Of a stretch of DNA of 64,000 bases, positions 2,407-61,700 are shown piece after piece (position 1 is the first letter of the stretch; every line of letters starts with the position of its first letter). The notes beneath the pieces were generated by a model. That model ran no database searches, had not been told where the DNA came from, and saw only the letters and a list, made by a program, of their open reading frames with translations. The stretch is from Schmidtea polychroa (taxonomy: Eukaryota), in assembly GCA_044892525.1 (NCBI GenBank), contig CM097887.1, positions 128,194,397 through 128,258,396 of the forward strand, read 5' to 3'. Position numbers and translations under genes: made by a program.

Positions 2407-3375
2407 TGTTGGGTTTTCAGTAAATTTAAGTCGGTAACCTCTGACTCCTTGTGTCCATTAAATCAAAACAATAAACGACCCAACGTATATTGAAATCAAA
2501 AATATATTTTCTCTCAATAATACACAATCAATAATAAATAGTCCAACAGTTCTAGTTTGACCGATTCTCCGCTCGGTGTTGATGCTTTGATAAAGATAAT
2601 ATTCACCTTTTTTTTCCTTAGGTTCTCTTGTCCAACGTTTTCTTTTTTCTCTTTGATTTGATCCTTTTTCACCCTTTCTATTCTTATTTTATCTCTTCTT
2701 TTTCCCTAATCTCCTAATTTCGTTTTTACCTTTTCCTAAGCTCGATCTCTTCTAACTCTAGCTGAGGCAAAATGCCTATTTGCTCTGATTTTCCCATTCC
2801 TTATATACTCTCCGAAATCAGGATGACAAATGATTATTGCCGAGTCAATCTCTCACTTGACATTCGCTTCCACATAATTGCTTTCTACACGCACTATCTT
2901 TTCCTTGCTCAAAATTGATCATTGTGTCAAGCTAATGGGCCCAAATCTTCCGTCTGTTTACTTTTCTTCTTGTTTACCCAGTTCGGGTTTCCTTCATATC
3001 TCGGGTTCTCCATTGGCTCGGGTTTACCATTAGCTCGGGTTTTCTATTAGCCAATTAATTAATTAATTAATATTTTCTGTTTTTACACATTTGAATGCTT
3101 TTCGACCCTTTCTAACCATTTTCTGATAAATCCCTAATCATCATCTTGTTGACCATTAGCTACTCTATTCCCCATTCGATTTCGATGATTCTTCAATTTA
3201 TTGATTTTTCTCGGATTTCCGGATTCTTGCCTTTCGTAACTGCTTTTTGCCATTTCCTAATACTGTTTCCATCGTACTTTCCTTTACTATCAATTCTGTG
3301 CATGATCACGCTTTTATTTGTCTTTTTTCTTCACTTTTTATTTAAATTACCAACCTAAATTTACGGACCTCAACA
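2407..3375 (-). mobile_element. Solo LTR (Ty3/gypsy-type family 1)
   Basis: TGTTGGG...CCTCAACA ends, ATAC duplicated on both flanks (2403-2406, 3376-3379), colinear similarity to 30168-31557. Confidence 0.9.
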
Positions 3376-7496: not shown

Positions 7497-8253
7497 TCAT
7501 TTCTCACGGTCGGCTTCCGCAAATAAGGCCTCTAAATTGAAAGATTCGGAATCGTTCTCTTTCCAAGTTGTACCAGCAGCTGAGATGATCCGACACTGCA
7601 TCCCAGTGTTCACAGTTGACATGGGAGCAACGCTACTATTCGCCTGCTCAATGGGTGCGACGCGTTTCTGTTCCTTTTCGATAGCTCGCTCCTTCTGCTT
7701 TTTCTTACGCTCTGCTCGAGATAGCTGTCGTCGCTTGGGCTTTGATGATGGATTGGTAGTATAGGATATGCTGGGTGTTGGGACAATTTTGGGCTTCACT
7801 CTACTGGTGCCCGTGAAAACGACTTCATTGGAATTAGGCGAGAGTTCCGCCTCTACACAACCCTTGACAAGACTTCTCCGAGGTTCGAGGTCTATTCGGG
7901 GTTTGGTCATGATGGGTAGGGAACACATTATCTTCCTCGGTTATTGGTATAGTCACGATCTTTCGAGTAATCGACGCCTGTAGGTACACTTTGTGTAGAG
8001 CTTCTGACTGCTCCTTGATGAGAAGCCGCTGCGATCTACTTTCGGCGATTAGACTATCGCGGCAATGTTCGCTCCGGAATAACTTCTTCCAGACCTCTTT
8101 CATTTGAGCAGGGTTGAACCAAATACTCTCTAGTTCCTCAATTTCCCGTTTGAGCGTTTCAACTTGGACTTGAAGACCCTTAATGGCTGTGTTCTTCTCG
8201 GCACATGAGAAGCAAGGCTTGATCAAATTATGAGCATTGGAATTCATGGTCAC
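7497..8253 (-). pseudogene. ORF-X copy A (CxxC + coiled coil + basic NLS protein), one frameshift
   Basis: ORFs 7834..8253 and 7497..7928 join into a homologue of 18847..19611 (KPCFSCAEKN, EHCRDSL, QSEALHKVY, DNVFP). Confidence 0.8.
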
Positions 8254-8902
8254 GAGTTATAAAGGATAGAAGACATATAATGAACGATCATCTGTGATCT
8301 ACCTAATCCGTAGGTAAACCGAGCATAACAATAAATCATCTAATTGTCTTAAGTCTTACTCAATACGTTTTTGGTCGTTAGAGTTCAACCGATAAAATGG
8401 CGTCATCGGACCAGCAAAAGAAATTCACCCTCAGACGATCTACTAGACTTCGTTATTGATATCCTGACCTAAACGCAATACTGTATCTAAAGTAAGGGTC
8501 GCCCAAAAAAATGATGACACTGTTAGAAAGCTTTACCTCTGTGCCTTGTAGAAAAAATGGAATATACACAAATGTAACAATGAAATTCATTTTTGTTACT
8601 GCTTGATGATTAATAGATACTTGTAATTGTTGTAATAAGTCAAAATAAGTATGAATAGAAGTTAAGAAATCGACTGTTGATTTGAATTTATTTCTTTTTA
8701 TAACTTGTAGCCTGTTTCATTATTTACAAACTCTATTATTATTTAACTAAAAGAAAAATTACAAACATTAATAGTGTAGTAAGTGTAGTTGTTTGATCAA
8801 TGTGAAAATCTCCAGGAAGAAGCGGATATAGTCGTATTTGTGAACTAAGCCGAAAGTGAATAAGAAATTAATCTAAGCGTTGGGCTACAAAGCATTTCTT
8901 TA

Positions 8903-12156: not shown

Positions 12157-13050
12157 GAGAAATGTAAAGAATCGACAGTAGAGTCAAAAACGATTATGAA
12201 CAAGGGAAATGGAAATTAAAGAGGAAGTATAGAGAAAGTGTACATATGTAAAAATTTATGTATAAATAGCAAACGAAATGTATTAGACGTATATGTAGCA
12301 AAGGATTGATGTATATGTAATTAGAATGGAAAATGGATTAAGTAATCTGTAATGAAAATACTAAATGTGAACCCTTATAATCACAACCGAGAACAAAAGC
12401 CCGATTAATAAGAGAAAATATAAATTAAGAAGCGTGATATGAATTACAAACACAGAAGGATAATGAGTCAAACGAATCAGTCGAATTTGGAACACAAACG
12501 AAAATGATAAGTAGAGAAAAATTCCGAACCAAGAAGCAATGTCGTTAATCAAGTCACCAAGAAAAACAAAGAAATTCAGTGTATCAAATCATCCAGTTAA
12601 ACAGAGGTTCCGAAGACCCTTGAGCAAGGTCTGTCCAATCCCATCAGATGACAAACCAACCAGAATCACAGCCTCAGAAATTCCAAAAGAAAAAGAATCA
12701 AAGAAAATAGTCAAACTCTAATAAACAACCAAGTCGAAAGATTGAAAATCGAACTCAGAAACGAGTAGAAGACAACGAAAGAAACGACAAACTGCTGAAA
12801 TGATCCATAAATAAAACTTTTGGGTGTGACTTGTAATTAAATCTAAACACTATCAGTAGTTATGCGTATTATAACCAGTCAATGTATGTGGCAACTGCTT
12901 GAATTTTAGCTTAGACCTTTCTCTGATAATTGAATTCTAACATGTCTTAGACTACTATAATATGTCTGTAGGTTAATGGAAATGTAATAGGCAATGACTC
13001 GAAAAAGTCATATGTCTAACAGAATTGCGTTAGTTAACATCATGAAAATT

Positions 13051-13720
13051 GTAAAGAAGCGAGTAAATCTTCTGGAAGGCACATAGTTTGCCACGCCTTA
13101 AATGAAAGAGGCGACCAAAAAGATATTGTGGTTGGAGCACTGCCGAGACAGTCTTTGGAAGAAAACCGAAACTTAAAACCCACAATCAAGCCACTATCGG
13201 AGGCTCTACACCGTTTATAATCCCAAACGGAACTGAGGAAACGAGTGTCGGAATGAACTATTTACGACCGAGACAATGTTTTCCTTACGAATCATTTTCG
13301 CGACGATCGACAATCATCAATCAAGACTTCGTGTCTGAATCACAAGACGGAATCTCCTCTCCCTTCTGTATGTACGAGTGTAGTTCCACACAAAGTAGCA
13401 ATTTCAATGGTCGCCCCGCCGGTAGTTGAAAATCAATCAGTCACCGTTAGTACCAGTTTTCGTCCAAAGAGAAAACGGCTCACTCGCGCCGAACGCTCAA
13501 ACGCAAGCGGGACGAGATAGCCGCCGTGTTCTCATCTCTTCTATTAGCCCAGTCGGGGACAGCGGCGTTTCCAGAGATCACACAGCCGTGTTCCTTTAGA
13601 ATGGTGCCAGTAGCGGCAACTCCATTGGTTTATGACGCACAAATGGAAGCCGACCTCAACCTCATATTACAGGAAGTCGGTGACAGTGCGTTCTGGATTA
13701 CAGACAACTCTGCATCCTGA
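13051..13720 (+). pseudogene. ORF-X copy D (stops and frameshifts)
   Basis: KKRVNLLEGT*FATP*MKE...LEHCRDSL...SEALHR...DNVF...PKRKRLTRAER aligns with the other copies. Confidence 0.75.
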
Positions 13721-18846: not shown

Positions 18847-19611
18847 ATGACCACTCCAACTAAGCTCGGAAGTACTCTTCGACCTTGTTTTTCCTGTGCC
18901 GATAAAAATGCCGATATCGCACAGCTGCACTTATACATCGGGGAATTAAAGAAGAGAATTGACCTATACGAAGGGACGTGGTTCTCCCCACCACAAATGA
19001 AGGAAGAGAAGAGTAAAATTCTACGTTTGGAGCACTGCCGTGACAGTCTCCTGGAGGAGAGCAGATGCCAGAGGCTAACCATAAAAGCCCAATCAGAGGC
19101 ACTGCACAAAGTATATTCGGAATCCGAGATAGCGAAGCGAGTTCGCGAATACCCAATACAAGATGGGACTAACGTGTTCCCGGAACACCATCAATCCGCT
19201 GAAACCTCATCAACCACCAGTTGCAAGGGGCACGGCCTACAATTGCCACCAATTCCCGCCCCAGTTCTTTCTGGCTATCGGCCTATGGCTGGCGGTCCAT
19301 CGGACCCTATCTTGACTCCAGTCCTCGCGTCGCCACTCACTCAGCCTCCAGCAGGAGCCACTCTTCCACCTCGAAAGCGTAAGAGACCGACGCGCTCAGA
19401 GAAAAATCAGAAGCGCAGAAACGCCATGGCCGTGCTCGAAGCATCGTTATCTGCAGCCAAATCGACGATCAAGGAAATTACAATCAACCATTCTATCCCT
19501 ACGAAAGAAGTGATTCGGGTAGTTCCGGCCGACAGCATCAAATTCCTCGAAGATCGCCGGTTGCCCGTCGACATTGACGAAATGATCGCAGAAGGAGAAG
19601 TGTTTTCGTAA
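18847..19611 (+). CDS. ORF-X copy B, intact 254-aa protein of unknown function
   Basis: ATG-to-stop ORF: RPCFSC, heptad region, Pro/Ser/Thr linker, PPRKRKRPTRSEKNQKRR, acidic C-terminal helix. Confidence 0.75.
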   Translation: MTTPTKLGSTLRPCFSCADKNADIAQLHLYIGELKKRIDLYEGTWFSPPQMKEEKSKILRLEHCRDSLLEESRCQRLTIKAQSEALHKVYSESEIAKRVREYPIQDGTNVFPEHHQSAETSSTTSCKGHGLQLPPIPAPVLSGYRPMAGGPSDPILTPVLASPLTQPPAGATLPPRKRKRPTRSEKNQKRRNAMAVLEASLSAAKSTIKEITINHSIPTKEVIRVVPADSIKFLEDRRLPVDIDEMIAEGEVFS

Positions 19612-21421
19612 TGAATTTTTTTTTTTTATTTGCCTCAATCTTTGGGCGGTATGAAGGAACTCGGAGAAGTTGACGTTATCCTGTACATGACCTTTGATGT
19701 TTTGTTCTTATTTAATTAATGGTGAATGTATCTTTATGTTTCACTTTAATACAACTGTTCGAAGTCTTTGATTTTTTCCATGGTATGTGTGATTTGCTGT
19801 GGTTGATTTGAGTAAAAGGTACTCCTGGAGACATAGTACGAGCGCAAATGTCGTCCCTTTGGACCAGGGTCGGACTGAATTAAGAGCGAAGAAACGGGTA
19901 AGACCTTCTATGGCACCATGGAACCCGAACCGAGAAAGGGTTAGGAGTAGTCCTAAGGCAGGGGCTCACCTGCTAACCTTTTCCAACCCGTGTGAGCAGC
20001 ACCAACGTGGAACACCACCACGGGCTCATACGTGGGAATATGTATTTGATCATTTTGGAGTATGTATGGGAAGTATCGGAGCGGAAGAGAGTACTTGGGA
20101 TGTATGATAATCAGGTGTGCATATTTTTCTCTTTCCCCACATACGCCAACACTAGCAAATATTCAAGGACAAACTCGATAGCAGCCGATAATTCAAGAAA
20201 TCACTCGGGAATATCAAGAATTCATACTTTTCAGCAGCTATTTTATTTCAACAACTAACGGAAAAGTAAATTTTTGCATTGGTTTATGTCTGTATTGCTA
20301 TGAATAATTTGCATTAAATTAAATTTAATAACGGATTCGTGTTCTTTTGATCACAATAATATAATTTTCAAGTTAATCTTATTTTTATTTAATCGAATAA
20401 ATTATGAGTAAATAAACGGATAAAGTAGGATTAGAATTTTATTTTTTATGAATATGACGAAGGAATGCTATTGAAATAATGATGCATATTTTGAATGATT
20501 TTGATATGTGTTCCACGACACTGAGGTTCAGCTGGCCACAGCTCGAGCGACACTAGTTGTTCCTCTTGCCAGTAGGTCGGATGATTCTTCAGCATCGTAG
20601 TGGCTGGGATCGGGTCATTTGTGGGGGTTTCTCCACTGATCTGTCGCCACAGGAGATGAATGATAAATACTCTAAAGGAGAGAAAGAAGCCACTGTAAAT
20701 GATTTTTGGCAATCACTAATATTATCGTTTATGTTAATGAACACTCGCAATGACTGAGGGAGCCTGAAAATTCATGATTTTCTCAATAACCAACTCTCGT
20801 TTTCGTTTACCTAAGGACTTTATTGCAAGAGGTGTCAATTTTCATCACAACAGATCTTGAGAGAATTACGCTTAGTATCGATTTACCTAACTCCAAGTTC
20901 GTGGTAGGATCCGTCACAAACCTTGTTCATAAGGCCTTAACGTCGACCTAGAGATTCCATGCGAAGATGCAGCAATTTTTCTCTGAAAACCTGATTTTCA
21001 TGATCCAACTTTAAGGAGGTAAATAATTAGTCAAGTCATGTCGTTTTGAGCCCATCATAGGCGGTGCTATATAATTTCTCAGACAGATTTAATGATAGAT
21101 GGTATCTCTAGACAATGATATCTAATAAAGTCAAGTTTCACCTTTTGCGTAACCACTCAGACAACTACAACACGGATGAACGATTTTTTTCTCCTCTTCG
21201 CGACGACTAGACGATAATGGTAGTTGAATTAAACCGACGAAGGGGGTCGACGACAGATTAGCCTCTTAAATTTTCATTCTACCACGGAGTTCTCTAAAAA
21301 TATCAGATGGCGTAAGTAATAGACTTCGGGTGATCCAAATATAATGGTGTGTAGAGACATGTTGTATTGACGATTCAGAGGAATAAGGAAACGCCATAAG
21401 TATCAATTTATAGTATGAAGC

Positions 21422-22096
21422 ATGACTTTAATACATACGTTGGATTTATTTAAGAATGTCAAAACCCCAGCAACCACAACCATCGTACGGCCATGCTTCT
21501 CATGTGCCGATAAGAATGTCTTAATCAAAACGCTCCAGACGCAGATCGGTCTCTTGAAGAAAAAATCTGATTATCTGGAAGGTATCTATTTTTCCCCAGC
21601 ATAAATGAAGGAGGAACGGCTGAAACTAACACGCGTAGAACGATGTCGAAATGACCTGATTGAAGAGAGCCGCGCGTTGCGAGCTCTGATTAAAGAACAG
21701 TAAGAGGCGTTGCACAAAGTCTACGTGCAGGCGTCTATCACGAAGAAGATCGTCAACATCCCCATCACAGAGGAGGATAATGTATTCCCGCATCTTCACT
21801 GTCAATCAATTTGCTTGGAAAATCAACAAATTAGACAGGTATTGGTAGCACCGACGCCCCCCTGCCATCTACCTCATCCGACGTCGTTTTCACCAGCATC
21901 AGTCAAGCGGCTCCAAAAGCAATCAGTGTATCAGCATCGGTCACTCTCCCAGTGGCGCCAAAGACTACTAAGCGCCGGCAACCGACTCGGGCCAAGCGAA
22001 CAAAGAAACGAAAGGCTCTCCAAGCCGAAAATAAGGCGAAGCTGGTTGCCGAAGTCACGCAGAAGCTCCCGGCATCGCAGGCAGAGGTGATATCTC
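21422..22096 (+). pseudogene. ORF-X copy C (two stops, frameshift, 3' truncated against an LTR fragment)
   Basis: RPCFSCADKN...EALHKVYVQASITKKIVNIPITEEDNVFP...KRRQPTRAKR. Confidence 0.8.
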
Positions 22097-22253
22097 GCTT
22101 TTGGCATTTCCCAATACTGCTTCCATCACACTTTTCTTTGCTATCAATTCTGTGCATGATCACGCTTTTATTTATCTTTTTCTTCACTTACTTTTTATTT
22201 AAATTATTAACCTAAATTTCATTTAAATTTATTTTAATTTACGGACCTCGACA
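22097..22253 (-). repeat. Truncated 3' LTR (first ~157 bp)
   Basis: Begins TGTCGAGGTCC on minus, preceded by purine-rich AAATGGGTAGATA (possible PPT); near-identical to the 5' LTR. Confidence 0.75.
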
Positions 22254-23003
22254 TATCTACCCATTTAAAAAAATATTTCGTCCTTGAAATACATGTTTTT
22301 AGACCTCTTCGAAAATTTACAATATTTTATTTAAGATTTTATTTATTTTAACATCATTTTCCTGATAAAATTTCCGACCGAATCAATTCTTTTTAATTTG
22401 GCTCTAATTATTTCGACCATTTTAATTTGGCTAGTAAATAATAATAATAAATATAAACAATATCAACAAAAATCATAAGCATATGGAAAACAAATGGTTT
22501 GCATTATATTTTATGCAACGTCATAATGAGAAGAAATTTGTTAGAAAAAGAATTCTATATATAAACATTATTTCATGAAAAGTACATCTGCACGAGATCA
22601 GTATCAAATATCAAACGTAATTGATCCGTTCGAAATTTTAGTAAAATATAAATCAGGGTAGTGTTAAATAAAATTTCTAACATTTTCACGAAACATCATA
22701 ATATTAATAATAACTTATTTATCTGTGAATGGACTCGTCGAAAGAAATTGGAAATCTTCAAACCGAATTTAATAAATAATGAATGGCGAATATTAGCTTA
22801 TTGATTCTTTTATTTGCAATAACTGACTTTATATTTATGCCGATAAATATTATGACCAATTAATCTATTTGATGTAACGGGATATTGATTATTATCATAT
22901 TATTATAATATTTATTTTAATAATGATAATTAAAAATTATTACCAATAAGTAAATGAAAATTGAAATTTAAAAAACATTTAAAACTAAATGAATTTGGTT
23001 TAA

Positions 23004-25392
23004 CACTAGGACGGCCGGAAATATTTTATACCTTGGAAGGCCAAACCGGTCAATTTGACCGGTGCACATATGCTCCTTATTTTCATGCTGAGATTTCTAT
23101 GATGCAACTCATTTAGCAATACTTTCTTTGTGCTACTAACACGCTTTCAAAATTTAACTATTTTTATTCTAACAGTAGTTAATTTATTAAACTACTTACA
23201 ACAATGAAATAAAAATATTTGTTTAGCTGACACAAAGCTACACTATTTTAAACATTGTCTTCGCGTTTATTCAGACTGGTATGTATGTATACTTCATTTC
23301 TTGTTTATAAATATTCTCTTGCTTTTATTCAAAGATAGTGCTTATTAAAAGTGTAATTAAGCAAGCATTAAGAGTTCTAAGTTTTGAAATTTGGTAAATT
23401 AAAAGAATCAAACGAAAAACTTAACGAAATGTCATAAGACAATATCTAATAATTGTTATAGAAAATCTTTGAACTTCTTGGGATAACAAACATTATATAA
23501 CCGTGTTTTCATTAGAATTCAATAATAAATTTGACGTTTCTTATTTTACTGACGGAGTTTTTATCATTATTTGATGATGAGCCCGAAAGAAATGATTCTG
23601 ACGAAGAGTTACATGAATGGAACTCTGATGATAATGGAAGTTCGTTAGAAAGTGACAATGAGTCATTCAATAGCTCAATTTCTTCATTAGAAAATCAGCT
23701 TTTATCTAGCAGGGATGGCACTCTTTGGAATCGAGTAGAAAACAATCACGCTATTAGTGTTGGCAGATTCCCTGCGCACAATATTTTTAGTGGAACACCT
23801 GGTTTGAAAGCTTTTGCAAAGCGCTTGATAGTCTCTGAGGGAATGCTGAAGTTAATTCAAAAATACACAATTATGAAAGGAAAAGAAGCTTCGTCAGACT
23901 GGTGTATCAGTCTACAAGAATTAGATGCTTTTCTTGGATTGCTGTATCTCCGTGGTGTGTTAGGCTTTCGCCGACATTCTATCAATTCAATCTGGTCATC
24001 TCAATTTGGATCTCCTTACTTCAGAGAAGTCATGTCTCGGAACCGTTTCCGTGAGATACTGCGCTTTCTTCGTTTTGATGAACAATGTTCTCGACGTCAA
24101 AGAGTAGAACAAGATAAATATGCCCATTTTCGTGAAATATTTGACTTGTTTGTTTCAAACTGTCTTCAAGTTTATACTCCTAATCCCTTCCTTACTGTCG
24201 ATGAGCAACTTTTGCCGCTAAAAAATAGGTGTTGCTTCATCCAATTTATGCCAAATAAGCCTGATAAATTCGGTATCAAATACTGGATTCTCAGTGATGT
24301 CAAAACCAAATTTGTCATCAATCAAATGCCATATTTAGGGGCTCACGATAGAAACGAACGCTGTGGATTACGGCTGGGTGATTTTGTAGTCAGGAAACTA
24401 ATGGAGCCATTTTTCAATAAAGGATACAATGTCTGCACTGACAATTTCTTTACAAGTCTCTCACTAGCTGAACATCTCCTTGTAAATCGAACAACATTGG
24501 TTGGTACTGTAAGATTAAATTCACGCTTTTTATCATCAGCTCACTTGGAGAAAAAGCCTCTTTTTGAATCGACTCATTTATCGTGTCAAAACACTGTCAC
24601 TGTTTCCTATCAAGGCAAATCGGACAAGAAAGTCATTGTCATGTCAACATTCTATTCTACTGCTAGTGTGAGATCTGACGAAAAGAGAAAGCCTGAAATG
24701 ATACACTTTTATAACAAAAATAAGACAGCTGTAGATACCATGGATAGCATGTTGCGTTTATACAGCAGTAAGGCCGCAACAGCAAGATGGCCAGTCGCTA
24801 CTTTCTATGATTTGCTTGATAAAGCAGCTCTCAACGCTCATGTTATTTTCAAAGATGCTACGGGATCAACTATAAAAAGAAGGGATTTTATTTTTGAATT
24901 AGCTACATCTCTCTGTGAGGAGTTCAAAAGCCGTCGAACAGCAAGTCCCATCTCTGGTGAACTCTGTTCTGAACAACCAAAATTAAACAAGCGAAAAACT
25001 TGTTCTGCTCCTCATTGTGATAACAAATCCGGAGCTATATGCCATGTATGTAGTAAAGTTTACTGTGGAAAACATTCCCAAATGACTGTTAAATGCTTCG
25101 GTTGTGTGTAAATTATATTTGGTTTTATATTTTCTAGTATGTAAGATGATTATGTGTGACTTTCTTGTGTGTTTCAAGATACCGGTCAAATTGATCGGTT
25201 CGGCCTTCCATGGGGATGGCCTCATTATCTCAGTCGTGACAAATGCTATAATTGAAGCTTTGATATGCACAACAAGTTCACTAAAAATGAATAATTGTCA
25301 CAAAATATGAGACGTTAATTCCTTTTCGTTTTCTCACAAAATAAAAATGAAATTGCTTAACGGTCAAAATGACCGCTCTGGCCGTCCTAGTG
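23004..25392 (+). mobile_element. Full-length piggyBac transposon
   Basis: 13-bp TIR CACTAGGACGGCC/GGCCGTCCTAGTG, TTAA on both sides (23000-23003, 25393-25396), subterminal CGGTCAA(T/A)TGA(C/T)CG palindromes. Confidence 0.97.
23531..25111 (+). CDS. piggyBac transposase
   Basis: LTVDEQL, CTDNFFTS, VDTMDSM (DDD triad) and C-terminal Cys-rich domain. True start uncertain (TTG; possible splice acceptor at 23514-23515). Confidence 0.95.
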   Translation: MTFLILLTEFLSLFDDEPERNDSDEELHEWNSDDNGSSLESDNESFNSSISSLENQLLSSRDGTLWNRVENNHAISVGRFPAHNIFSGTPGLKAFAKRLIVSEGMLKLIQKYTIMKGKEASSDWCISLQELDAFLGLLYLRGVLGFRRHSINSIWSSQFGSPYFREVMSRNRFREILRFLRFDEQCSRRQRVEQDKYAHFREIFDLFVSNCLQVYTPNPFLTVDEQLLPLKNRCCFIQFMPNKPDKFGIKYWILSDVKTKFVINQMPYLGAHDRNERCGLRLGDFVVRKLMEPFFNKGYNVCTDNFFTSLSLAEHLLVNRTTLVGTVRLNSRFLSSAHLEKKPLFESTHLSCQNTVTVSYQGKSDKKVIVMSTFYSTASVRSDEKRKPEMIHFYNKNKTAVDTMDSMLRLYSSKAATARWPVATFYDLLDKAALNAHVIFKDATGSTIKRRDFIFELATSLCEEFKSRRTASPISGELCSEQPKLNKRKTCSAPHCDNKSGAICHVCSKVYCGKHSQMTVKCFGCV

Positions 25393-26842
25393 TTAATGAT
25401 AAAATTATACTCTTAGAATTTCATGACATTTGGTCTGATTATAAACCCATTCATTGTCGGTGATATATGATTTCGGGAGATATCAAATTAATTTAATGCA
25501 CTTATCGCAGAAAACTGATTTTCAAAGTTGGATAGTCAACTCTTGCTGTTCAATTGGAGCATTTTAGACTGACCAGACACTCTATTCTTGTCCGGATTAT
25601 AATCGTAAGTCAGGCGCAATTGAAAAGCCTATTACTTTATGAAAACGATTCGAATTGGATAAATAAAGTGGTCAATATTTCAACATCAAAACGAAAACCA
25701 ATTATTCTCAAACAAGGTCGAAGTTCCTGGCCGGTAACGAGCAATGGGAAAAATCATAAAAATATGTATGTTATTATTATTAGTTATTAATAGATATTAA
25801 TAGTTAACTTTTAAGTCGAGAAACGTGTCGTGGATTAGCCGGTATTGTGAAAAGGTCAGCCGATCAAAAATTTACTAGTCATGGGGAATTTGTTTCTCGT
25901 CACAGTTCATTCCTTTATCGATCCGATTCGATGATAAGTTGTTCATTAATATTGTAAAAAATTTTTTGATATAACAATCTGTTTCCTCGTGGTTATTATT
26001 TTATTTTTTTTTACATGGATAATAAAATTTTAATTAATACCCAATGATAAAGTATTTAATGCACCGAATGAAGTCTGAAAACTGAATGAGATTTGTATTC
26101 CTATGCTGACAATAGTTTACCGAATTTTGTTACTACAGACCTTATGTCAATCAAATTTTATTTTATAATTATTGAATTAATTTTTTTTAAACTGTTCTGT
26201 AATAGTAGAAAGATTGTCTTCAAATATTTATTCCCTGGCATGCATTTTGTCCATAAATCATGCTTAAATCTTAAAACTACAATATTTTAATTATTAATCT
26301 TCCCATAATTTTTATTATTGATGGAAATATATAATTTTAATTCAATATAACATTTCATTATGATGGGAGGCTATTGGATTTCAATATTTGTTGCTCTATG
26401 ATATTTATCGACGTTTATTGTAGATAACATGTAAGTAAGGCAGCTTGCCCAATAATGATTAAATATTGTAAGAATTTTGAATTAATTGCACATGATTTTT
26501 CTGATTTAGATGGGATATTGGTTTTATATTATTAATTATGTGGTGCTAAAAATATATATGATTTCTAGGGGTATTTATTTTCAATTTTTGATTTTGTATA
26601 CCTTTTTTTTACAATAAAAGCAAATCTTTTATTTCACCTACCCTATATCTGTTAATGATTGCGCTTGCATTTTTCCTAAAATTTTTAGCCGTATTTACAC
26701 TTAGGTATTTTCAACTAATTGAACTTGTTTTCATTTAGTATTTATTATGTAATTCTTAAAGATCTACTTTCTGTTTGTTCACACTATCATATACTATTTC
26801 TCTGCAACTAACTATATATCGAGGGCGCCATGGTACGGACTT

Positions 26843-27178
26843 TTACATAGTCTTTTGTATCAAATTTTCCCATCCGCCATTGTTTGCAATTAACTTCATC
26901 AAATATTTATTCGTCATTTCAGTGGCTTTCTTTATTAATGATTTTGAATTGTCAGTTTCCAAACAAACATAAATACCAATCTCCACTATTATATAGGCTA
27001 GCGCTGTCAATATTTCATCTCAATCCAACGCGGTTCGTGTTAGGTCCTCAATTATTGCTTCCTCACAAAATTCCTTTTCTTCATAATTTCTTTTAATTAT
27101 CCACGGTAATGTCCTCTTTAATTCCGTTGCCAATCTCTTTACAACTCTTTTCTCCTCCTCCGAAGTATCATCTCTTTT
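26843..27178 (-). pseudogene. Bcl-2-family-like domain with one internal TGA
   Basis: Manual translation: ...VVKRLATELKR...EDLTRTALD*DEILTALAYIIVEIG...KYLMKLIANNGGWENLIQKTM*. BH2-like NGGW; TGA (27020-27022) falls where BH1 has the Trp of NWGR. Confidence 0.7.
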
Positions 27179-27197
27179 TTCCAGTTTCGTCTAACAA

Positions 27198-27904
27198 TTA
27201 CAATTCCGTAACTAAACTTTGTAATATTCGCTCAGTTTTGCTTGATTCGTCTAAACTCAAAGATTCAGTTTCCGCATCATTTTGTCGTTTCCGACATATC
27301 GCAATGTCATTTTCCGTTTCAACGAAGTTCTCTTCACTTTTTGTTTTATTTACACTCGGTAATACCCTGTTATCGGTGCTCATTTCCTCGATATCCCTTT
27401 TAGCTTCATTTTCCGATCCCATTTCCTCATTTTCCATTGTTTCTAATCTCTGCAATTCATTAATTTCTTGATCAATTTCTCCTGGGTCATCTACAACTTC
27501 AGTTTTAATCTCTACATTATCATTATACGTTTCCTCATACGGAGGCCAAACGGTATTATTACTGCATCTCTTTCCATTTCATCACTTTGCTTTGTTGCGT
27601 ATACATTATTAATACAATTTGGGTTACATCAGTAATTCAATAAATATTCGTCATCATCTAATTCTCGTGCTTTGAACGTCAACACGATAATTCCTTCATT
27701 GCGTAATATCTCATCTGCTTTTTGTCGTATTTTCTTTGCTTTTACACTCCAATGTTCCTGATAATATTCAATCCTTTGATCCGCAATATTCAACGCTATT
27801 ATCAACGACTTCGCACTATTGTCTAACACCCCATAATCATGTCCTAGTTTTCGGATTACCTTTTTGAGCTTCGCCTGATAGCTTGTCGGTTTATTAGTAT
27901 ACAA
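27198..27904 (-). pseudogene. Helical and acidic linker segments between the UBL and Bcl-2-like domains
   Basis: ORFs 27629..27904 and 27198..27455 on the same strand, separated by stops and frameshifts. Confidence 0.45.
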
Positions 27905-28361
27905 TCAAACAATTCAAACAATCTTCTTTCATTTCTCGATCCATTTCAATGCTCATAATGAAATCGATACTCGCATTAATTTTATCTTTATTCCCTGCAT
28001 ATAGAGTGTCTTGTAAATCTGCTAGAATTTTTTCCCAATTCTGTCTACCTGAATTCAAAGTATTAACTGCATTAACGACATTTACTTTATTTTTCCAGCC
28101 TGGTATCAGACCGCAATCTACCAAGTACTCCTCGTCTTCCAGACATCGATTCTCAAATTTTAATTGCACTTGCCATCCACTGTATTGACGCAGTATTCGC
28201 TCCTTTAGCTCTCTGATTTGTCCGTAGGCATTTGCACGGAATTGGCACATCACATTATCAAGTCCCGTCGTTTCCACTACGATATCAGCTAAATTTCTTG
28301 TTGGCCGTAAAGCCTTGCCAAACTTCTGCATTTGCTTAAGTATCTCATCGTAGCTTTGCAC
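27894..28361 (-). CDS. ORF containing an integral ubiquitin-like domain (nt 28071-28286)
   Basis: IVVETTG...IRELKERI...QVQLKFENRCLEDEEYLVDCGL...VNVV parallels ubiquitin IFVKTLTG...IENVKAKI...[21 protein letters not shown]...LHLV; no terminal GG. Confidence 0.75.
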   Translation of the reverse strand: MQSYDEILKQMQKFGKALRPTRNLADIVVETTGLDNVMCQFRANAYGQIRELKERILRQYSGWQVQLKFENRCLEDEEYLVDCGLIPGWKNKVNVVNAVNTLNSGRQNWEKILADLQDTLYAGNKDKINASIDFIMSIEMDREMKEDCLNCLIVY

Positions 28362-28464
28362 ATAAATTTATTGCTCTCTTTAGTTCACTTTGGGTTAGTG
28401 ACATCAAACTGAGTTCTGCGATCCATCGTTTCAAATGGGAGTTGTTAGTTTCCATTCTCGCAAG

Positions 28465-29851
28465 TCATCTTTCAACTCGGGCTAACAATGCCGTCGGATT
28501 CTCATCTGATGCGATTTTTCTCACTTTCATGGCGGGTTTTTCCTCACCTTCTGACACGGTTCCGATTATCATATGAGATTCAGTTTCCTCGTCTAATTCG
28601 AATTTAGCCAATAATTTGTTCAACTTCTGTCGCATTTCTCGAAATTCCTTTTCCATTTTGTCTTGAAATTCCTCTCTCTGCGCATATGTCATATTACTGG
28701 TATTTGGCATATCTTCTTGGAACCTAATCGATTTCTTTAATATAGGTCTGCTAAATCTTTCTGAGTTACTTGGGCACGATCGAGCCATATGACCGTATCC
28801 CTTGCACGAATGGCATTGTATTTGTCCATTGGTATTCACTTTGTCCCTTTGTGGTGAAGGTGACGTTGACGATGATCTTGATCTGGTGAAACAGTTTCTG
28901 CTAATATGCCTTTTCTTTCCGCATCGATAGCATTCAACATCACTGCTGATCCTTTTGTTATCTTTGAAACTCTTGTTAGGGCTGAGATTTTTCCCATATT
29001 TGAACCAACACTGATTTCAGTAGTGTCCGGACTTTTTGCAATATTCGCACTGAGGGCTATTTACCTGTCCATTTGATTGTACGTTCATGGCTGATCAACT
29101 GGCTTGAAATCTATTATTTGGTCTCAAAATTGGACTACTGATTTGGTTTATTTTCTTTTCATCCCATGGTGCTCTCACAGGAGTAATTGACCGCTCACGT
29201 CTCTCCACATTAACTCCAAAAGCATCTGATCTTTTCGCACTTTTTAAATTCAGCTCTATCTTCATGGCTTTCTTCACAAGCTCATCGAAATTAGAAAAAT
29301 CCACATAACATAGGGCATTTTTGATTTCGGAGTGGACTCCGGTTATAAACTGATCTTCTAACAGCTCTTTAACCTGCTTGGCCATATCTGCTTGATCTGG
29401 TTTGACTTCAAAGGCTTTATCTGCTAAAGTGGTCAGATGATAAGCAAACTCACTGACCGATTCATCTGGACCTTGAACTCGATTATAGAATTTCTGTCGC
29501 ATAATTCTTTTGATATCTCCACAACCAGTTTCAGTGCCATTGCATCCTTCAATTTGATCCAATCATTGCCAACGTTCCGTTTATCGACTTGCTGCCAGGC
29601 TTCTCTTGCCGCACCCTTCAAATAGAGTGGGAATCTCTGAACCTTAATGGCTTGTGTCCATCCGCATGCTGAGGATTATACATATAATAATCTCCCATGA
29701 AATCTGCGAATTCAACAGGGTCTCCTCCATATTGATTGACGGGTATTTTTTGGCAACTTGCGAAATCAATCATCTCTCTATTGATAGGCATAACAGCATT
29801 ATCATTTGCCATTTGGACTTGTTTTTGACTTCTGAGGTTGTATCGATTCAC
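28465..29851 (-). pseudogene. gag: Retrotransposon Gag with three CCHC zinc knuckles, frameshifted
   Basis: GWTQAIKVQRFPLYLKGAAREAW, QGPDESVSEFAYHL, DQFITGV; knuckles CEYCKKSGHY*NQC, CYRCGKKRHISRNC, CHSCKGYGHMARSC. Confidence 0.9.
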
Positions 29852-30142
29852 TTTAAGCTAAACTTCAAACGTTCAACAATAATTCAAAATTACTTTTCAG
29901 CTTCTTTTAAATCTTCCAATAATAGCCTTTAATATCTATCTCGTCAGCACTATTTTCCAAAAATTTTCCACTACGTTCAATAATTCTCAACCGACTTCAC
30001 GTCTATACTCTTTTTCCAAATATTTTTGCAATAACTTTCAATAATTCTCTGCCGACTTTCAATCACGTCGGTATTATTTTCCAAATACTTTTTTTTAATA
30101 ATTTTTTCCCACTAACTTTCAATAATTCTCCGCCGACTTCCT

Positions 30143-30160
30143 ATCACGTCGGGCTCACCA
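30143..30160 (-). promoter_or_regulatory. Primer binding site complementary to the tRNA-Trp 3' end
   Basis: TGGTGAGCCCGACGTGAT, 7 nt after the LTR end. The plus strand ATCACGTCGGGCTCACCA matches the metazoan tRNA-Trp 3' end (ATCACGTCGGGGTCACCA, recalled) at 17/18. Confidence 0.85.
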
Positions 30161-30167
30161 GAATATA

Positions 30168-31557
30168 TGTTGGGTTTTTGGTTAATTTAAGTCGGTTACC
30201 TCTGACTCCTCGTGTCCTTTAAATCAAAACAAACACTACCCAACGTATATTGAAATAACAAAATTCATAATCTTTTCTCACCACTTTACAATCAATAATC
30301 AAAGTTACGTTTGACAGATTCTCCGCTCGGCGTTGATGCTTTGTAAATAGATAATATTCACCTTTTATTTCTTTAGATTCTCTTGACCCACGTTTTCCTC
30401 TTTTTCTGTTTGATTTGATTCTTTTTCACCTTTTCGTATTCCTATTTTCTATATCTTCTTTTCCCTAATCTCCTTAATCCGTTTTTACCTATTCCTAACT
30501 CGGTTTCTTCTAACCCTATGCTCTGATTTTCCCTTTCCTTATATACTCCTCGAAATCGGGATGACAAATGGTTATTGCCGAGTCAATCTTTCACTTGACA
30601 TTTGCTTCCACGTATCGGCTTCGGCTGTCACCCATAATGGCCCAACGAACCAAGATAATAAATGGCCCTTCCGGCCTTTCTACACGCTCTTTTCCAATTA
30701 ATCATTGTGTCAAGCTAATGGGCCCAAATCTTCCTTCTGTTTACTCTTCTTCTTGTTTACCCAGCTCGGGTTTCCTTCATCTCTCTTCATAAAAATGAAA
30801 TGAATAATGAACTAAATAAATTTTTGGACAATAATACTCCAATATTCATTCAATAAGATCCCATTAATAATTACCTAACCCTTCCTAACTCGGTTTCTTC
30901 TAACCCTAGCTGAGGCAAAATGCCGATTTGCTCTGATTTTCCCCTTCCTTATATACTCTTCGAAATCGGGATGACAAATGGTTATTGCCGAGCCAATCTT
31001 TCACTTGACATTTGCTTCCACGTATCTACTTCGGCTGTCACCCATAATGGTCCAACGAACCAAGATAATTAATGGCCCTTCCGGCCTTTCTACACGCACT
31101 ATCTTTTCCTTGCTCTTTTCCAATTAATCATTGTGTCAAGCTAATGGGCCCAAATCTTCCTTCTGTTTACTTTTCTTCTTGTTTACCCAGTTCGGGTTTC
31201 CTTCATCTCTCGGGTTCTCCATTGGCTCGGGTTTACCATTAGCTCTGGTTTTCTATTAGCCAATTAATTAATTAATTAACGTTTTGATTGCTTTGAATGC
31301 TTTTGACCCTTCCTAACCATTTTCTGATAAATCCCTAACCATCATCTTGTTGACCATTAGATAATCTATACCTGTCCCGTTTTCCCAATTCGATTTCGAT
31401 GATTTTACAATTTATTGATTTTTCTCGGATTTCCGGATTCTTGCCTTTCGCAATTGCTTTTGGCATTTTCCAATACTGCTTCCATCACACTTTTCTTTGC
31501 TATCAATTCTGTGTATGATCACGCTTTTATTTATCTTTTTCTTCACTTACTTTTTAT
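30168..31557 (-). repeat. 5' LTR (runs into N gap) with internal ~300-bp duplication
   Basis: Homologous to solo LTR 2407-3375; 30480-30790 is repeated at 30880-31210. Confidence 0.9.
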
Positions 31558-31724
31558 NNNNNNNNNNNNNNNNNNNNNNNNNNNNNNNNNNNNNNNNNNN
31601 NNNNNNNNNNNNNNNNNNNNNNNNNNNNNNNNNNNNNNNNNNNNNNNNNNNNNNNNNNNNNNNNNNNNNNNNNNNNNNNNNNNNNNNNNNNNNNNNNNNN
31701 NNNNNNNNNNNNNNNNNNNNNNNN
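31558..31724. other. Assembly gap
   Basis: N run. Confidence 1.
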
Positions 31725-33466
31725 GGCTTGAATTTGACACGGTATAAACTGATATTATTCACAACAACATTGATTCCTTATCGGATGTTTAGGGTTATTA
31801 TGCACAAAACTCCAAAATTCTATCCTTACTGAGGTACCTTATAGCTTGATTTATAAGACAGTAATTTTAATATAAAAGTATTGCTAAAAATAATAATTAT
31901 GAAAGTGAACAGGGTAGAGAAGAGGAACGACAAAAATATTTTCACTACTTATTTTAAATCTAGGGTTTTCTACAAAGAATCATATACATTAGCGGTATAC
32001 CCTTGCTTTGGTACGGTTATATTTTTTAATAAATTACTAAGTTTCATTTTTCAGATTATTTATAATTAGAATAATAATTAATAGTTTCAATATAAAATAT
32101 AAAAAGAGTTTGCAGTTTTTGATGTTTAATATTGTGTAGCAAAAAACAAAGCACCCTATTTGAAATAAAGTCTGGAGTAATTTAAGTTAAGGGTTTACTA
32201 AAACTCAAATGGGTAGCGAATCGTATTCTTCCCATAGACTTCAATGATTCATATGTTATCATTCGTCAGATACTAACCTCATTAATAATGAATTGTTCAT
32301 AATTATTGCCATGTCATTTATTTTCTTCTTTTTATTTAACAATGAAGTTCTTAAATTCCGGGTCAATTCAAAATATTGAAATATCTAACTTCCTAACATA
32401 GCTCGTCCGTAAAATTAATTCTTCCCTCTTCAACTTATCCATGTCCATCCTTAATATAACTAAATGATTCAGAAAACTGCTTTAATAAATTCATTCATAA
32501 CATTTATCCAGGTCTATTTCGTTTTTGTTTATAGTAAAATCGCCTTGAAAATCTACAAATTTTATGGGGTATAAACTTCTGCAATTAGTAGTAAAAATAT
32601 AATTAGATTTACTTGCGGCGTTAAAACCATAAGCGAAGGTATATAACAAAAATGAAAAGAAACGAAATCTCACAGCTATCTTAATTTGTAGGATTTTATA
32701 CGTTGATGACATTGAATTAAATGATTTCGAAACAGTCGTTCATGAAAATAATTGACAATAGGCAGGCAAAAGAAAACTATGTGGTAATTGTAACGTGAAA
32801 TTTGCACCATTTACGAAAAAAATCTCTTTTTAGTTTGCAGCTTTGGCATCAGACGTCCCTGTAAATTTTCAACTATTTAGCTGCAACGGTTTAGGCTATG
32901 TGAACAGCGAAAGATGGCAAACCAACCCACAAAGAAATATATTTAGAGTTTTATATAAGATATATAAGTGAAATTAAGTAAAATCCAAGTATGAGCAACA
33001 AAGTTCTCTCAAAGCTAAATTTTCATTACAAAATAAAAGGCATTAACCATAATATTAATTTACCTTATTCTTGTTTATCGATTAATATAATCACACCCGG
33101 CCAAAGGTATCAGCAATATTCTTTGATTTACCTGCTTTGGATTTAAAATTCAAGAGCGTTTAAATTAGGAAACGTTAGAACAAACTAGATCTAAACGATC
33201 GCGCAAATTTCAGGAACTCCCTACAATTCTTGAAACTATTCATCAAAGATCAGCGCTGAGATAGCCAAGTAAACCCAGTGTGTGACAGCTTCAATTTCCG
33301 AGGAGAGTTTGAATAACCGATTTCTATCTTAGATAAAACGGCATTTTTTCCGTACACATATTTTGTAAAAATTTGTTGTATAGTTAAATATATTTATTCA
33401 TCAAAAAGTCTTATTTATTTAAAATATATTTACGTGTTTTTATAATTAAATAATTATACTTACATG

Positions 33467-36498: not shown

Positions 36499-36882
36499 TT
36501 AAAATTAAATTTAATAACATAAATTCTTTTCAAAATCGTAAAAGAATATGCATTATTAAAACAAGAGATTTGAACATTTTAAAAATTAATTAATTATTAT
36601 AAATTTAGTTTAGAATTTAATTTTAATATTAATTTCTAATTATAGGTAAACATAATATTTTTAAAATACGATTTATAAGAGAAAGTAAGATTATCAATTG
36701 CATATTTTAAATCCTTCTAGATCGATAATTTTAATCGGCCTAAGGAATGGCTACTGTAAAATTTTATTTAGATAGAACACACAGAGTTTCTGTTAGAAAA
36801 AATAATGGCTGTCTTTGATTGGATAACGTATATTTATACATTGTGATCAAAATATTTTCAGAATTATAATCAGATTTTTATA

Positions 36883-38109
36883 ATGAAACGAGTAAAAAGC
36901 TGCTCGACTTTGAGACTAAAAGTTCATCAGCTATTGAATGAAGAAGAGAGAGAAATTGTTAAATACGCCATAAGAATTTATCGAAAAAATCAGTCTATCG
37001 ATGCTCTATGTGATATATTATCAAAAATTATTACAGATGCTAATCGGAGTTGTTTGGTCACTTTAATAGCAGATATGCTTAAGGATGAACAAAGGTCTCA
37101 ATTTCTTAACAGGTGTTACATGAAAATGCCGGGCTATAGTGTTTCTCAGCAGCAATTATCAAGACCGGAATTATCACATTCGAATAGTGAATATAAATCA
37201 AATACATTTTCATTGCGAGTAGCAACTTTTGTGTCTAAAAATAAATCTAATCAATCAAAAAGTAACTTAAATCTTGTGAAACAAAATTCAAAATATGATG
37301 ATAATGATTCCACATTAAAAAGTGCAATGAACCGTGACAAAAAATATTCCAATGAATCGAATAATAATGATACATTCAAACGTTCTGATTCTGAAGAACT
37401 TTTAAAGACAATTGAAAAGTGCACAATAAAAGAACGCCCAAGACTTTCAAATTTGCAGGATAAAGGATTTTGGAAAATTAACAGTGACAGTCAAACTGAT
37501 AATGATTCCATTCACAGTTCATCGTCTTCGAATGATAAATCACAACCGAAAGAACTATTGAATGGTGAAAAACCATCAATATCAATTCCACAGAATAAAG
37601 AAACGCCTCGGTTTTGTTCAAATAAAAAATATTCCAATGTTGGGTTTCCAAACGGTAAAGAGGTTAAAAAGAATCATTTCAATAAGAATACTAGACAGCA
37701 TTCAAATCCAAATCCAAAGGTTATGGTTTGTAAACTTCATTTTAGTTCGGTTAATGATGTTGAAGATACTGAAGAAAGCGTCAATGAAATTCCTATGCAT
37801 TTGCGTTCATTGGCAACAGTTTTCTATAATGTAAATTCCTCCGACAATTTTTTTGTTCAATATCAACCAGAAATACCCAACTACATGTATCCTAGCAATT
37901 ATAAGGCTATTGAACAATTTAGGTGCAAATCTATAGATGAGAACATAAATATCTTAACGTCTAATAATACTCTCCGTCAAAGTGATTCCAATCCAGTTTT
38001 AACCAGCTTGCATTCTGAAGAAATTTCTCACAGAGTTTCCACAGATGAGGGATGTCAAACAAATCCTATTAAAACATGTGATACCGGTACACAAACATTT
38101 CTGGCTTAA
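36883..38109 (+). CDS. 408-aa protein with an N-terminal harmonin-N-like domain and a low-complexity tail
   Basis: KVHQLLNEEEREIVKYAIRIYRKNQSIDALCDILSKII...LVTLIADML resembles the harmonin/whirlin/delphilin N domain. Confidence 0.7.
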   Translation: MKRVKSCSTLRLKVHQLLNEEEREIVKYAIRIYRKNQSIDALCDILSKIITDANRSCLVTLIADMLKDEQRSQFLNRCYMKMPGYSVSQQQLSRPELSHSNSEYKSNTFSLRVATFVSKNKSNQSKSNLNLVKQNSKYDDNDSTLKSAMNRDKKYSNESNNNDTFKRSDSEELLKTIEKCTIKERPRLSNLQDKGFWKINSDSQTDNDSIHSSSSSNDKSQPKELLNGEKPSISIPQNKETPRFCSNKKYSNVGFPNGKEVKKNHFNKNTRQHSNPNPKVMVCKLHFSSVNDVEDTEESVNEIPMHLRSLATVFYNVNSSDNFFVQYQPEIPNYMYPSNYKAIEQFRCKSIDENINILTSNNTLRQSDSNPVLTSLHSEEISHRVSTDEGCQTNPIKTCDTGTQTFLA

Positions 38110-48436: not shown

Positions 48437-48812
48437 TCAATCAAGATAATGAGGTCCAAATGGATTTAAATTATCTAAATATTTCTCCTCTGAGGATATG
48501 AAATCACCAAAAGGATTTGAACCATTGCCATTACTTTCAGTGGTTTCCAGATATTCTTCAAACGGATTTTTATTTCTGTAGGAATCACTTTTATTCGATC
48601 CTGTTTCAATCGATAAATCCTTTGCAATCGGAACAGAAAGTTTGGTTGTTTCTTTGGGAGTTTCAGAAACAAAAATTTGAGATGAAATCTTCTTAATTCC
48701 GGGAAAAGGCTTTTCAGGAGATGAAGTCGGAAATTTATCGGTTGCACTAACTCTTGGTATCATATTCAATTGGGATTCATAGTTTTTGGTAATCGAAGTC
48801 GCGACTGAATTT
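48437..48812 (-). CDS. Terminal exon of a protein with three NPF (EH-domain-binding) motifs
   Basis: TTTCAG acceptor at ~48813; NPFEE, NPFGD, NLNPFG before the stop. Upstream exons not identified (gap at 48945). Confidence 0.6.
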
Positions 48813-48944
48813 CTGAAAGAACAAAGAATAAAATGCGAATTTTAAATATTCAAAATCTAAAATTTTCAGTATTATTCAGAAATAATATGTGACTAAGAAA
48901 AATATAGCATACAAAATTTAAAAAAGCAAATTAACTAAAAAGTT

Positions 48945-58578: not shown

Positions 58579-58767
58579 TTTTGATCCGGATCATTTTTTT
58601 TTTATTTCAACTTCTTTCGTTTATCAAATCTCTTCCAATATACAAGCTGGCCAGACTCATACATCAGAATCAATCCGATAATAGCAGCACGCCTTATTAT
58701 TCGCTTCTCGCTCACGAAGTCGATTTCAACGGCGTTTTAGTATCCAATAAAAAATTTTTTTCTAAAA

Positions 58768-61700
58768 ATGAATTGTAATATTTGCAATAAAGTTTTTAAA
58801 AATAAAACTGGATTAATTTCTCACTTAAAATCGAAAGCTCATTTATTAAAAGAAAATAATCTTAATGATACAAATTCAAAACTTTGTCTTAAATGTAAAG
58901 GAAGATTTCTACATTCTGGATATAATAAACATTTTGAAAATTGTATCGGGAAAAATAGAGAAATATTTACATGTCCTCATTGTAACTTTTCAACAAAACT
59001 AAATTTCTATTATTTAGAACATATAAAAGAATGTAAAAATAAAAAACAAAATTCTGACGATGAGGAATGTCATTCAGAAGGAGAGCCTGATCATGTTGAA
59101 AGAGAAAAATATAACTGGGATAATTTTAATCATATAGATGAATTTCAATTAAAAATTAATGGGCCTGCAACTCCTGGAGAATATATAAATAAAAATAAAA
59201 AAAATATTAAAAATTCTTTCACTGAAGCTTTAAAAAATTATAAACCGACAAGGTATAATGTTATAAAATATAAAATTATAATCAAAGCAAAATACTGGCG
59301 AGGAGCAGAAGAAAAGACAACACCCTTAGATGTTGAAATTGGAATACCTTTTAAATATTTATTTTCAATTAAAGGATTTGATAAAACCATCAAAGAAATA
59401 ATTAAAGCAGCAGAAGCAAAACAAGAGGAAGTAGAAAATGAATTAGGAGATTCAAACTTAGTATTCAACTCTTTCCAAACTTTAGTGATTGATTATTGGA
59501 GAGGATTACCACCCAATCCTAAATCTTATATTCCTACACCCTTTAAATCTAAAAATGTTATAAATGTACAGAATAATGATAACAAATGTTTCATCTGGTC
59601 AATACTTGCACATTTACATCCTCAAGCAACAAATCCCCAAAGAGTTTCAAAATACAAACAATATGAAAATGAATTAATATTTCCCAAAGGATTCAAACAC
59701 CCAATGAAACTAGAAGACATTCCAGAATTTGAAAAATTAAATAATCTTAAACTTAATATTTATGAACATGTTATAGGGAAAGAAATTATTCCAATTTATA
59801 TTTCAGATAGTGGAACCAAGGATAACGGAGCACAGGACAACGAGATATATCTTTTAATCTTGGAACAAGAAAATAATCAACATTATGTTTTAATAAAAAA
59901 CTTTCAAGCTTTTACATCTCCAGAGAATCCAACTAGTGGAGGAGGAACATGTAAAAGATGTCTTCATTATTCAACAACTAAAAACTCTATGATTAAACAT
60001 ACAAGATTTTGTGAAAAAGATGATCCAGCTTTAATTAAAATGCCTAATAATCCCAAGATGTATTTTAAAAACTTTTCAAATTTACTACAAACAGTTGGAG
60101 TTCTTTATGGTGACTTTGAATCTATAAACCATAAACAAGATTTGGTTTATCAATATTTAAAAATAATAGAAAAAAATAAACTCATGGATTTATGGAACTC
60201 CTCAGGAGAGAAGATGAAACCAGAGAGGATGAAAGCCTTTCTAAGAAAAAGAAATAAACCTAATAGTGTTAAAAAAACTAAACAATTACCATCTGCTTAT
60301 AAATTATTATTTAAAAGTAATTATCCTGAACTCATAGAATCTAGAGAATATTCAATTCTAGGAGGTACCCCTGAAGAAGTCTTGAATCACTTTACTAAAA
60401 GTATAAATGATTTAGAACATGAAATATATAAAATATTAAAAACAAAGTATCCTCAAAATATTTCTAATCAACAACAACAAGAATATGAAAATACTTCCAA
60501 CTGTTGGATGTGTAAACAGAATATTCTTCCTGATGAAAAAGTTATAGATCATGATCATTTAAAAAAGGAAAATAATTATCGAGGAGCAGCTCATAAAAAT
60601 TGCAATCTTAATTGCCATACTCCTAAATTTATACCTGTTATATTTCATAATCTTTTTGGATATGACATACATCTATTTATTAAACACCTCGCAGCAAATG
60701 CTAAAAACTCTTTCAAAGTTATCGGCTTAACAAAGGAAAAATATAAATCAATTGAATATGGAAAATTAAAATTTATAGACTCGTTAAACTTTCTCCAAAT
60801 GTCTTTAGATGCAGTAGCAAAAACAATGAAACCAGAAGATTTTAAAATCACTCGAGAATTCTTGGAAAAAAATAATATTCCTCTAGAAGAATATCCTACA
60901 TGTTTAGCAAAAGGAATATATCCTTATGACTATGTTGACTCGTTTGAAAGATATAATGAAACAAGTCTTCCTAACAAAGAAGATTTCTTTTCAAACTTAC
61001 TACAATCAGGGATTACAGATCAAGAATATTCTCGAGCATTAAAAATGTGGGAATTATTCAAGTGTAAAACTTTAGGAAAATATACCAACATGTATTTATC
61101 CTTAGATGTTTATATTCTAGCAGATTGCTTTGAAGAATTTACAAACTCTTTTGTTCTTAAACCTTATAATTATATAACTGCACCCTCTTTAGCTTGGGAT
61201 ACTATGTTATATACCATTTGGACTTCAAATATAGAAGATGCTGATAAAATTATAGATCTTTTAACTAACCTCGATATGTTTAACCAAATTAAAACAAACA
61301 TTAGAGGAGGAGTCTCTTCAGTAATGGGGAATAGAGAAATAAAAGCTAGAAATGCAATAACTACTAGCCGAAGACTATCTAAACACCCTGATGATCCATA
61401 TATGAAAATTAACAATGAGGAATTAAAAGAATTATTAGAAACAATGAAAAATCCTATATTTATACTTTATATAGATGCAACAGCTTTATATTCAGGAATT
61501 ATGACTCAATTTTTACCAATGGGTGATTTCACTGAAATAGAGAACCCAACAGATGACCTTATGAAAGAAATACTTTTAACACCTAAAGATTCTCCAATAG
61601 GTTACTTTATAGAATGTGATCTCGATTATCCAGATGATATAAAATCAAAAACAAGATATTATCCTTTAGCCCCTATAAGAAGAAAGATTAATGTTAACGA

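Follow-up and report, generated by a model that had tools for sequence, protein, structure and literature searches.

A decayed Ty3/gypsy element of Schmidtea polychroa with predicted ubiquitin-like and Bcl-2-like domains and a probable private loss of env and pol

The window analysed here is a stretch of 64,000 nucleotides from the genome of the planarian Schmidtea polychroa (assembly GCA_044892525.1, contig CM097887.1, positions 128,194,397 to 128,258,396). Between its positions 22097 and 31557 lies a decayed long terminal repeat (LTR) retroelement that reads on the minus strand. An earlier note, made from the sequence alone, had listed an LTR, a tRNA-Trp primer-binding site (PBS), a gag region with three knuckles, a ubiquitin-like domain (UBL), a Bcl-2-like domain, a nested piggyBac, a polypurine tract (PPT)-like sequence and an LTR remnant, and all of these are found at the minus-strand places given for them. 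The note had also found no protease (PR), reverse transcriptase (RT), RNase H or integrase (IN). This was borne out by tblastn searches of the window with proteins of related (sister) copies, which gave no match to any of the four or to the envelope gene (env). The element is very probably one decayed copy of a multi-copy Ty3/gypsy family, from which env and pol were lost in one private deletion of 7-8 kb.

The deletion junction is located at 26849..26855 (minus). The window follows the family sequence up to this point, where the Bcl-2-like domain ends, and takes it up again at the 3' untranslated region. The ~7-8 kb that is missing comprises env, PR, RT, RNase H, IN and a 3' accessory region; the span amounts to 6.7, 7.2 or ~8.2 kb depending on the sister compared, each of which may carry gaps of its own. 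The motif AAAGAC(T) occurs at both breakpoints and a single copy is retained in the window at 26855-26849, which places the breakpoints exactly within a microhomology of 6-7 bp. The chance of a microhomology of at least 7 bp was roughly estimated at 0.0014. As a result of the deletion, a stop now lies two codons past the Bcl-2-like domain. The 781-Mb genome was searched for the junction in two ways. A 121-bp junction probe matched over its full length only in the window, among 40 scored of 514 candidates, and a 25-nt junction pattern allowing up to two mismatches had one match in the genome, the window itself.

The sister copies show what lies beyond the junction in the rest of the family. A search with the Bcl-2-like stretch returned 288 first-look candidates, and the 40 that were scored comprised the window itself and 39 further loci with 92-94% identity. 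In every one of the 19 loci that this search returned besides the window, the Bcl-2-like stretch continues into the start of env. The cargo belongs to the element, as the earlier note had supposed, and is not flanking host DNA. Pfam matches on 22 natural sister open reading frames (ORFs) included Monjiviricetes_fusion (E 1e-62), protease (E 1.7e-7), RVT_1 (E 9e-20), RT_RNaseH (E 2e-39) and rve (E 2.5e-12). The domain order in the sisters is mononegavirus-type fusion glycoprotein, aspartic protease, RT, RNase H and integrase. The glycoprotein (gB-type/mononegavirus-like) sits between gag and pol, and env and protease share one ORF. The Ty3/gypsy-type pol that is missing from the window copy is thereby present in the sister family in the order PR-RT-RNaseH-IN (Pfam on ORFs). 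The earlier note had proposed to look for an autonomous partner; sisters that encode env and the pol enzymes carry the same cargo. A sister that retains both LTRs is 15.5 kb long.

Neighbouring parts of the polyprotein are joined in single open frames in single natural copies: gag to knuckle and knuckle to UBL (L023), UBL to Bcl-2 (L028), Bcl-2 to env (L021, L031) and env to protease (L040, L025). In one sister, the matches to env, protease, RT and integrase all begin in the same frame. This domain order and these shared frames indicate a family that is autonomous in design, with its cargo between gag and env. First-look candidates obtained with 401-bp probes numbered 867 for RT and 803 for gag; these are not copy numbers, and they indicate that pol is not scarce. 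As judged from sequence, the order in the family polyprotein is gag, two likely ubiquitin-like domains, the predicted Bcl-2-like domain and env, followed by protease, RT, RNase H and integrase. The ubiquitin-like and Bcl-2-like parts are ordinary polyprotein pieces of the family rather than substitutes for lost genes. The earlier view that pol had been replaced by host-like domains therefore fails: pol stood behind the cargo and was lost from there along with env. The ancestral Gag-UBL-Bcl-2 polyprotein that had been suggested fares better in one respect, since the neighbours from gag to protease do share open frames in natural sisters, but an ancestor limited to these parts is not supported, as the family has env and pol. 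In two sisters (L022:3988-5453 and L032:5005-5601), extra ORFs without a Pfam match lie 3' of integrase, in the region that is deleted from the window copy.

The visible part of the 5' LTR (30168..31557, minus) ends in ...CCCAACA. Its outer end is hidden under a run of N, so that position 31557 marks the end of that run and not the outer end of the LTR. It carries a private internal duplication, in which 31211-30871 recurs at 30785-30485. Of the 3' LTR, the first 157 bp are present (22097..22253, minus); the remainder is gone, and another repeat abuts at 22096. Where the two LTRs overlap (22097-22198 against 31456-31557) they differ at 2 of 102 positions (95% interval 0.2-6.9%), while sister LTRs are 84-95% identical. 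The two pieces accordingly belong to one insertion, and 22097-22253 is not the independent LTR fragment that the earlier note had allowed for. Sister LTRs are 1.02-1.06 kb long with termini TGTTG...CAACA. The window LTR has TGTCG at 22253 and CAACA at 30168, and thus the TG...CA ends of direct LTRs. A decayed PPT adjoins the 3' LTR (22254..22266, minus), where two sisters retain a run of 5-6 G. At 2407-3362 the window also holds a diverged solo LTR that belongs to this family, 76-91% identical.

The PBS (30143..30160, minus) is complementary at 18 of 18 positions to the 3' end of host tRNA-Trp(CCA) plus its CCA, and it begins 7 nt past the LTR end. The spacer between LTR and PBS is usually a few bases, and 7 nt is longer than that. 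The same 7-nt spacer (30161-30167 in the window) was found in 11 of the 11 listed sister 5' LTRs. A tRNA-Trp T-arm pattern had 809 matches in the genome, and 99 of the 100 listed belong to a 284-bp tandem array on contig C4 from ~55.02 Mb (L062), in which ARAGORN called six genes for tRNA-Trp(CCA), the element's primer tRNA. An Rfam scan of 22000-32000 gave no matches.

The coding stretch of the window copy is heavily decayed. Over the 3 kb from the start of gag to the end of the Bcl-2-like domain there are ~6 in-frame stops and ~6 frame changes. Gag (28774..29857, minus; Retrotrans_gag, E 5e-4) is disrupted by both. Its three CCHC knuckles (29049-28774; zf-CCHC, E 1.6e-7) follow the pattern CX2CX4HX4C, and a stop lies inside the first. 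The first ubiquitin-like domain (28070..28274, minus), which the earlier note had named, is present below the Pfam cut-off (E 0.14 in the window, 1.2e-4 in a sister). The note's helical/acidic linker has to be divided. Its helical part likely holds a second ubiquitin-like domain (27600..27800, minus; E 0.054 in a sister), which matched ISG15 at E 0.047 with a profile built from seven distant relatives; the acidic linker follows at 27200..27578 (minus).

The predicted Bcl-2-like domain (26852..27195, minus) corresponds to a BH1/BH2-like part ending in GGW, with a frame change at its start and one internal stop. PF00452 matched the domain of a sister at E 0.008 (17.1 bits against a cut-off of 31.4), and the window's own stretch had no Pfam match. 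A 16-row profile (A1), 11 rows of which came from a PF00452 search, matched Bcl-xL at E 0.003; the 60 matches shown are without exception members of the Bcl-2 family. In a structural model with a predicted local distance difference test (pLDDT) score of 63, Foldseek ranked Bcl-xL first at E 0.16. A wide structure search with the same model returned generic helical bundles (best Z 7.5) and no Bcl-2 entry among the 50 matches shown. A single-sequence fold of the UBL-to-Bcl-2 stretch of a sister reached a pLDDT of 41, and its Foldseek matches were meaningless. Single-sequence PDB searches gave E 1.1 for the window's Bcl-2-like stretch and no match for its UBL. Homology of the cargo domain to Bcl-2 is likely, though the sequence evidence for it is weak. 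Bcl-2 matches were also encountered elsewhere in the genome. A second family (L117-L132) has a Bcl-2 match in open frames of up to 3,090 amino acids, with only ~25% protein identity to the window's family over the linker, Bcl-2 and the start of env. Contig C4 holds a cluster of seven Bcl-2 matches at 89.9-90.8 Mb (L087-L093), all strong (E 6e-16) and near-identical, which probably represent the amplification of a host gene.

Downstream of the junction, the non-coding 2 kb described earlier is the family's 3' untranslated region (22254..26848, minus; ~2.2 kb, carrying two later insertions). A nested piggyBac (23004..25392, plus) is flanked by TTAA on both sides, has 13-bp terminal inverted repeats and encodes an open transposase of 531 amino acids (23516-25111; DDE_Tnp_1_7, E 1e-68). 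The piggyBac is a later insertion, and the sister L067 has the empty site. The other insertion, of 187 bp (26189..26375, strand unassigned), matches two contig C2 loci at 98-99% identity and is missing from the 3' region of a sister.

Several observations weigh against a single private deletion in a family with these domains. Downstream DNA of ~5-13 kb was surveyed in 19 sisters, of which 17 were among the 19 loci of the Bcl-2 search and two had been found via the 3' region. At least half of one pol domain was present in 12 of them, and seven had less than half of any pol domain in the DNA read. Three of these seven (L003, L020 and C1:144.64) leave env less than 300 bp from its start, all at different breakpoints; with most of env and pol lost in these three, pol-less copies are not rare. 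The Bcl-2-like stretch is 92-94% identical to the best sisters and gag 97-98%. The Bcl-2 and ubiquitin scores fall under the cut-off, and Bcl-xL leads the ranking of the fold model only at E 0.16. Among the contig pieces listed from four public sequencing runs (271 others lay outside the list), none bridges the junction, and in these runs both undeleted continuations appear as loose ends there. The listed holders of the sequence included no RNA run.

The pol-less sisters bear on the earlier proposal of a non-autonomous Gag-UBL-Bcl-2 subfamily, spread in trans by the enzymes of an autonomous partner. The window copy retains the LTR, PBS, gag and PPT, which is all that a helper would require, and the loss of most of env and pol in three other sisters would fit such a subfamily. 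It is nevertheless very unlikely. The junction occurs once in the genome, which argues against any pol-less family mobilised in trans and refutes the idea for this junction in the assembly; the breakpoints differ in the other pol-less sisters, and the family itself carries env and pol. C1:144.64 was considered as a sharer of the window deletion and was rejected on its different breakpoints. The pair at C1:206.89/206.99 Mb was likewise rejected as trans-mobilised twins. This duplicated pol-less copy, the sole one checked, is a segmental duplication (C1 ~206.88-206.90 and 206.98-207.00 Mb), 99.6-100% identical over at least 15 kb, flanks included. The public runs raise a different question, whether the junction is an assembly error that fused parts of different copies. 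Hundreds of similar family copies and the lack of a bridging piece among those listed could point that way, but contigs collapse repeats and drop rare forms, private deletions are common among the sisters, and the two LTR ends share 98% identity with each other, more than with any of the sisters read. Such an error can be given very little credence. The stop created two codons past the Bcl-2-like domain might instead suggest an anti-apoptotic gene retained and domesticated by the host, comparable to the inhibitor of apoptosis (IAP) module of Burro1, a region reported to protect planarian stem cells (study cited in PMC13465017). Against this stand the ~6 stops and ~6 frame changes of the 3-kb coding stretch, with one stop falling within the Bcl-2-like domain and one frame change at the point where it begins; domestication of this copy is extremely unlikely.

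Deletions at or just past the Bcl-2-like domain do recur, in the window and in three of the 19 sisters, each with its own breakpoints. It is conceivable, though improbable, that they do so because Gag-UBL-UBL-Bcl-2 derivatives without env and pol form in the course of reverse transcription and are then favoured, whether as defective-interfering genomes or by supplying the host with an anti-apoptotic protein; the sisters were chosen via the Bcl-2 stretch, which biases this sample for testing favoured cuts at the Bcl-2/env border. For the window copy, a single private deletion remains the preferred reading, and microhomology-mediated joining is its likely route. This could have happened by template jumping of RT or by double-strand-break repair after insertion. 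The family would have replicated autonomously with tRNA-Trp as primer. Neutral decay would account for the stops and frameshifts of the window copy, for the duplication in its 5' LTR, for both insertions and for the absence of most of its 3' LTR. In the family, though not in this copy, the Bcl-2-like module would bind BH3 proteins of the host and let the producing cell survive, while a role in polyprotein processing or stability would fall to the ubiquitin-like units.

Other features of the window were noted in passing. A repeated ORF family has four copies (21419-22090, 18847-19611, 13048-13295 and 7497-8256) with 50-63% amino-acid identity and no convincing Pfam match; one copy abuts the cut 3' LTR. 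An open ORF of 1,434 amino acids with a C2H2 finger spans 58741-63045. It has no polymerase Pfam match, and from its motifs we take it to resemble a Polinton-type DNA polymerase B. Its sequence is also inserted in the sister L033. Long ORFs at 36847-38109 and 48437-48841 resemble host exons and have no Pfam match.

A single dead copy is of little importance. The family is of more interest as a compact and abundant carrier of ubiquitin-like and predicted Bcl-2-like modules. Non-autonomous LTR derivatives of the LARD/TRIM type have kept their cis signals and lost their enzymes. The window copy resembles them in both respects and differs in that its deletion has a single occurrence and was not amplified, with no dispersed copies sharing it. 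In the part of the literature consulted, no paper on pol-less Gag-UBL-Bcl-2 elements of planarians was found. The cargo itself has been described, contrary to the earlier note, which knew of no such LTR element. PMC6431247 describes planarian Burro elements whose Gag carries three CCHC knuckles. In them a Ubi2/SUMO-like motif precedes a BCL2-like one, env stands in frame after BCL2 and ahead of the protease, and pol follows. The window and its sisters share with these giant gypsy-like elements (Burro/GYPSM1) the three-knuckle Gag, the UBL before BCL2 and the env between BCL2 and PR (PMC6431247). They differ in size, with 15.5 kb in the sister against more than 30 kb and an ORF near 5,000 amino acids in Burro (PMC6431247), and in domain content. 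MATH, BIR and ankyrin were not found in Pfam scans of the gag-to-env ORFs of the window and sisters. Where Burro has a dUTPase-like domain, between PR and RT, the sisters have a spacer with no dUTPase Pfam match at E<0.1. Planarians are also the group in which the module of another retroelement, Burro1 IAP, reportedly helps stem cells (study cited in PMC13465017).

The family to which the window copy likely belongs is found among the six GAG-ENV-POL errantiviruses described from Schmidtea mediterranea (PMC13524379). One of these, Smed_errantivirus_2, is of the HSV/gB type and is listed there with 215 intact copies. Compared by eye over two stretches of 70 residues, the sister env agrees with that of Smed_errantivirus_2 at 68 positions in each, and it differs clearly more from Smed_errantivirus_1. 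Smed_errantivirus_2 and the sisters also share the position of env between gag and pol and a high copy number (PMC13524379). From the LTR to Bcl-2, the window DNA is 90-93% identical to Smed_errantivirus_2-like sisters. Unlike Smed_errantivirus_2, the window copy is without env and pol and is riddled with stops. The table of PMC13524379 gives the tRNA type of Smed_errantivirus_2 as "none", in contrast to the perfect tRNA-Trp PBS in the window, and the 7-nt spacer may account for that entry. The words "Bcl" and "ubiquitin" have no occurrence in the main text of that eLife article (word search). The additions made here to the published account are thus the tRNA-Trp PBS and, relative to that main text, the cargo domains. 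By sequence comparison, the window copy is likely a deleted member of the Smed_errantivirus_2 family, and the element is likely already known in kind, as an ordinary dead copy of a catalogued family.

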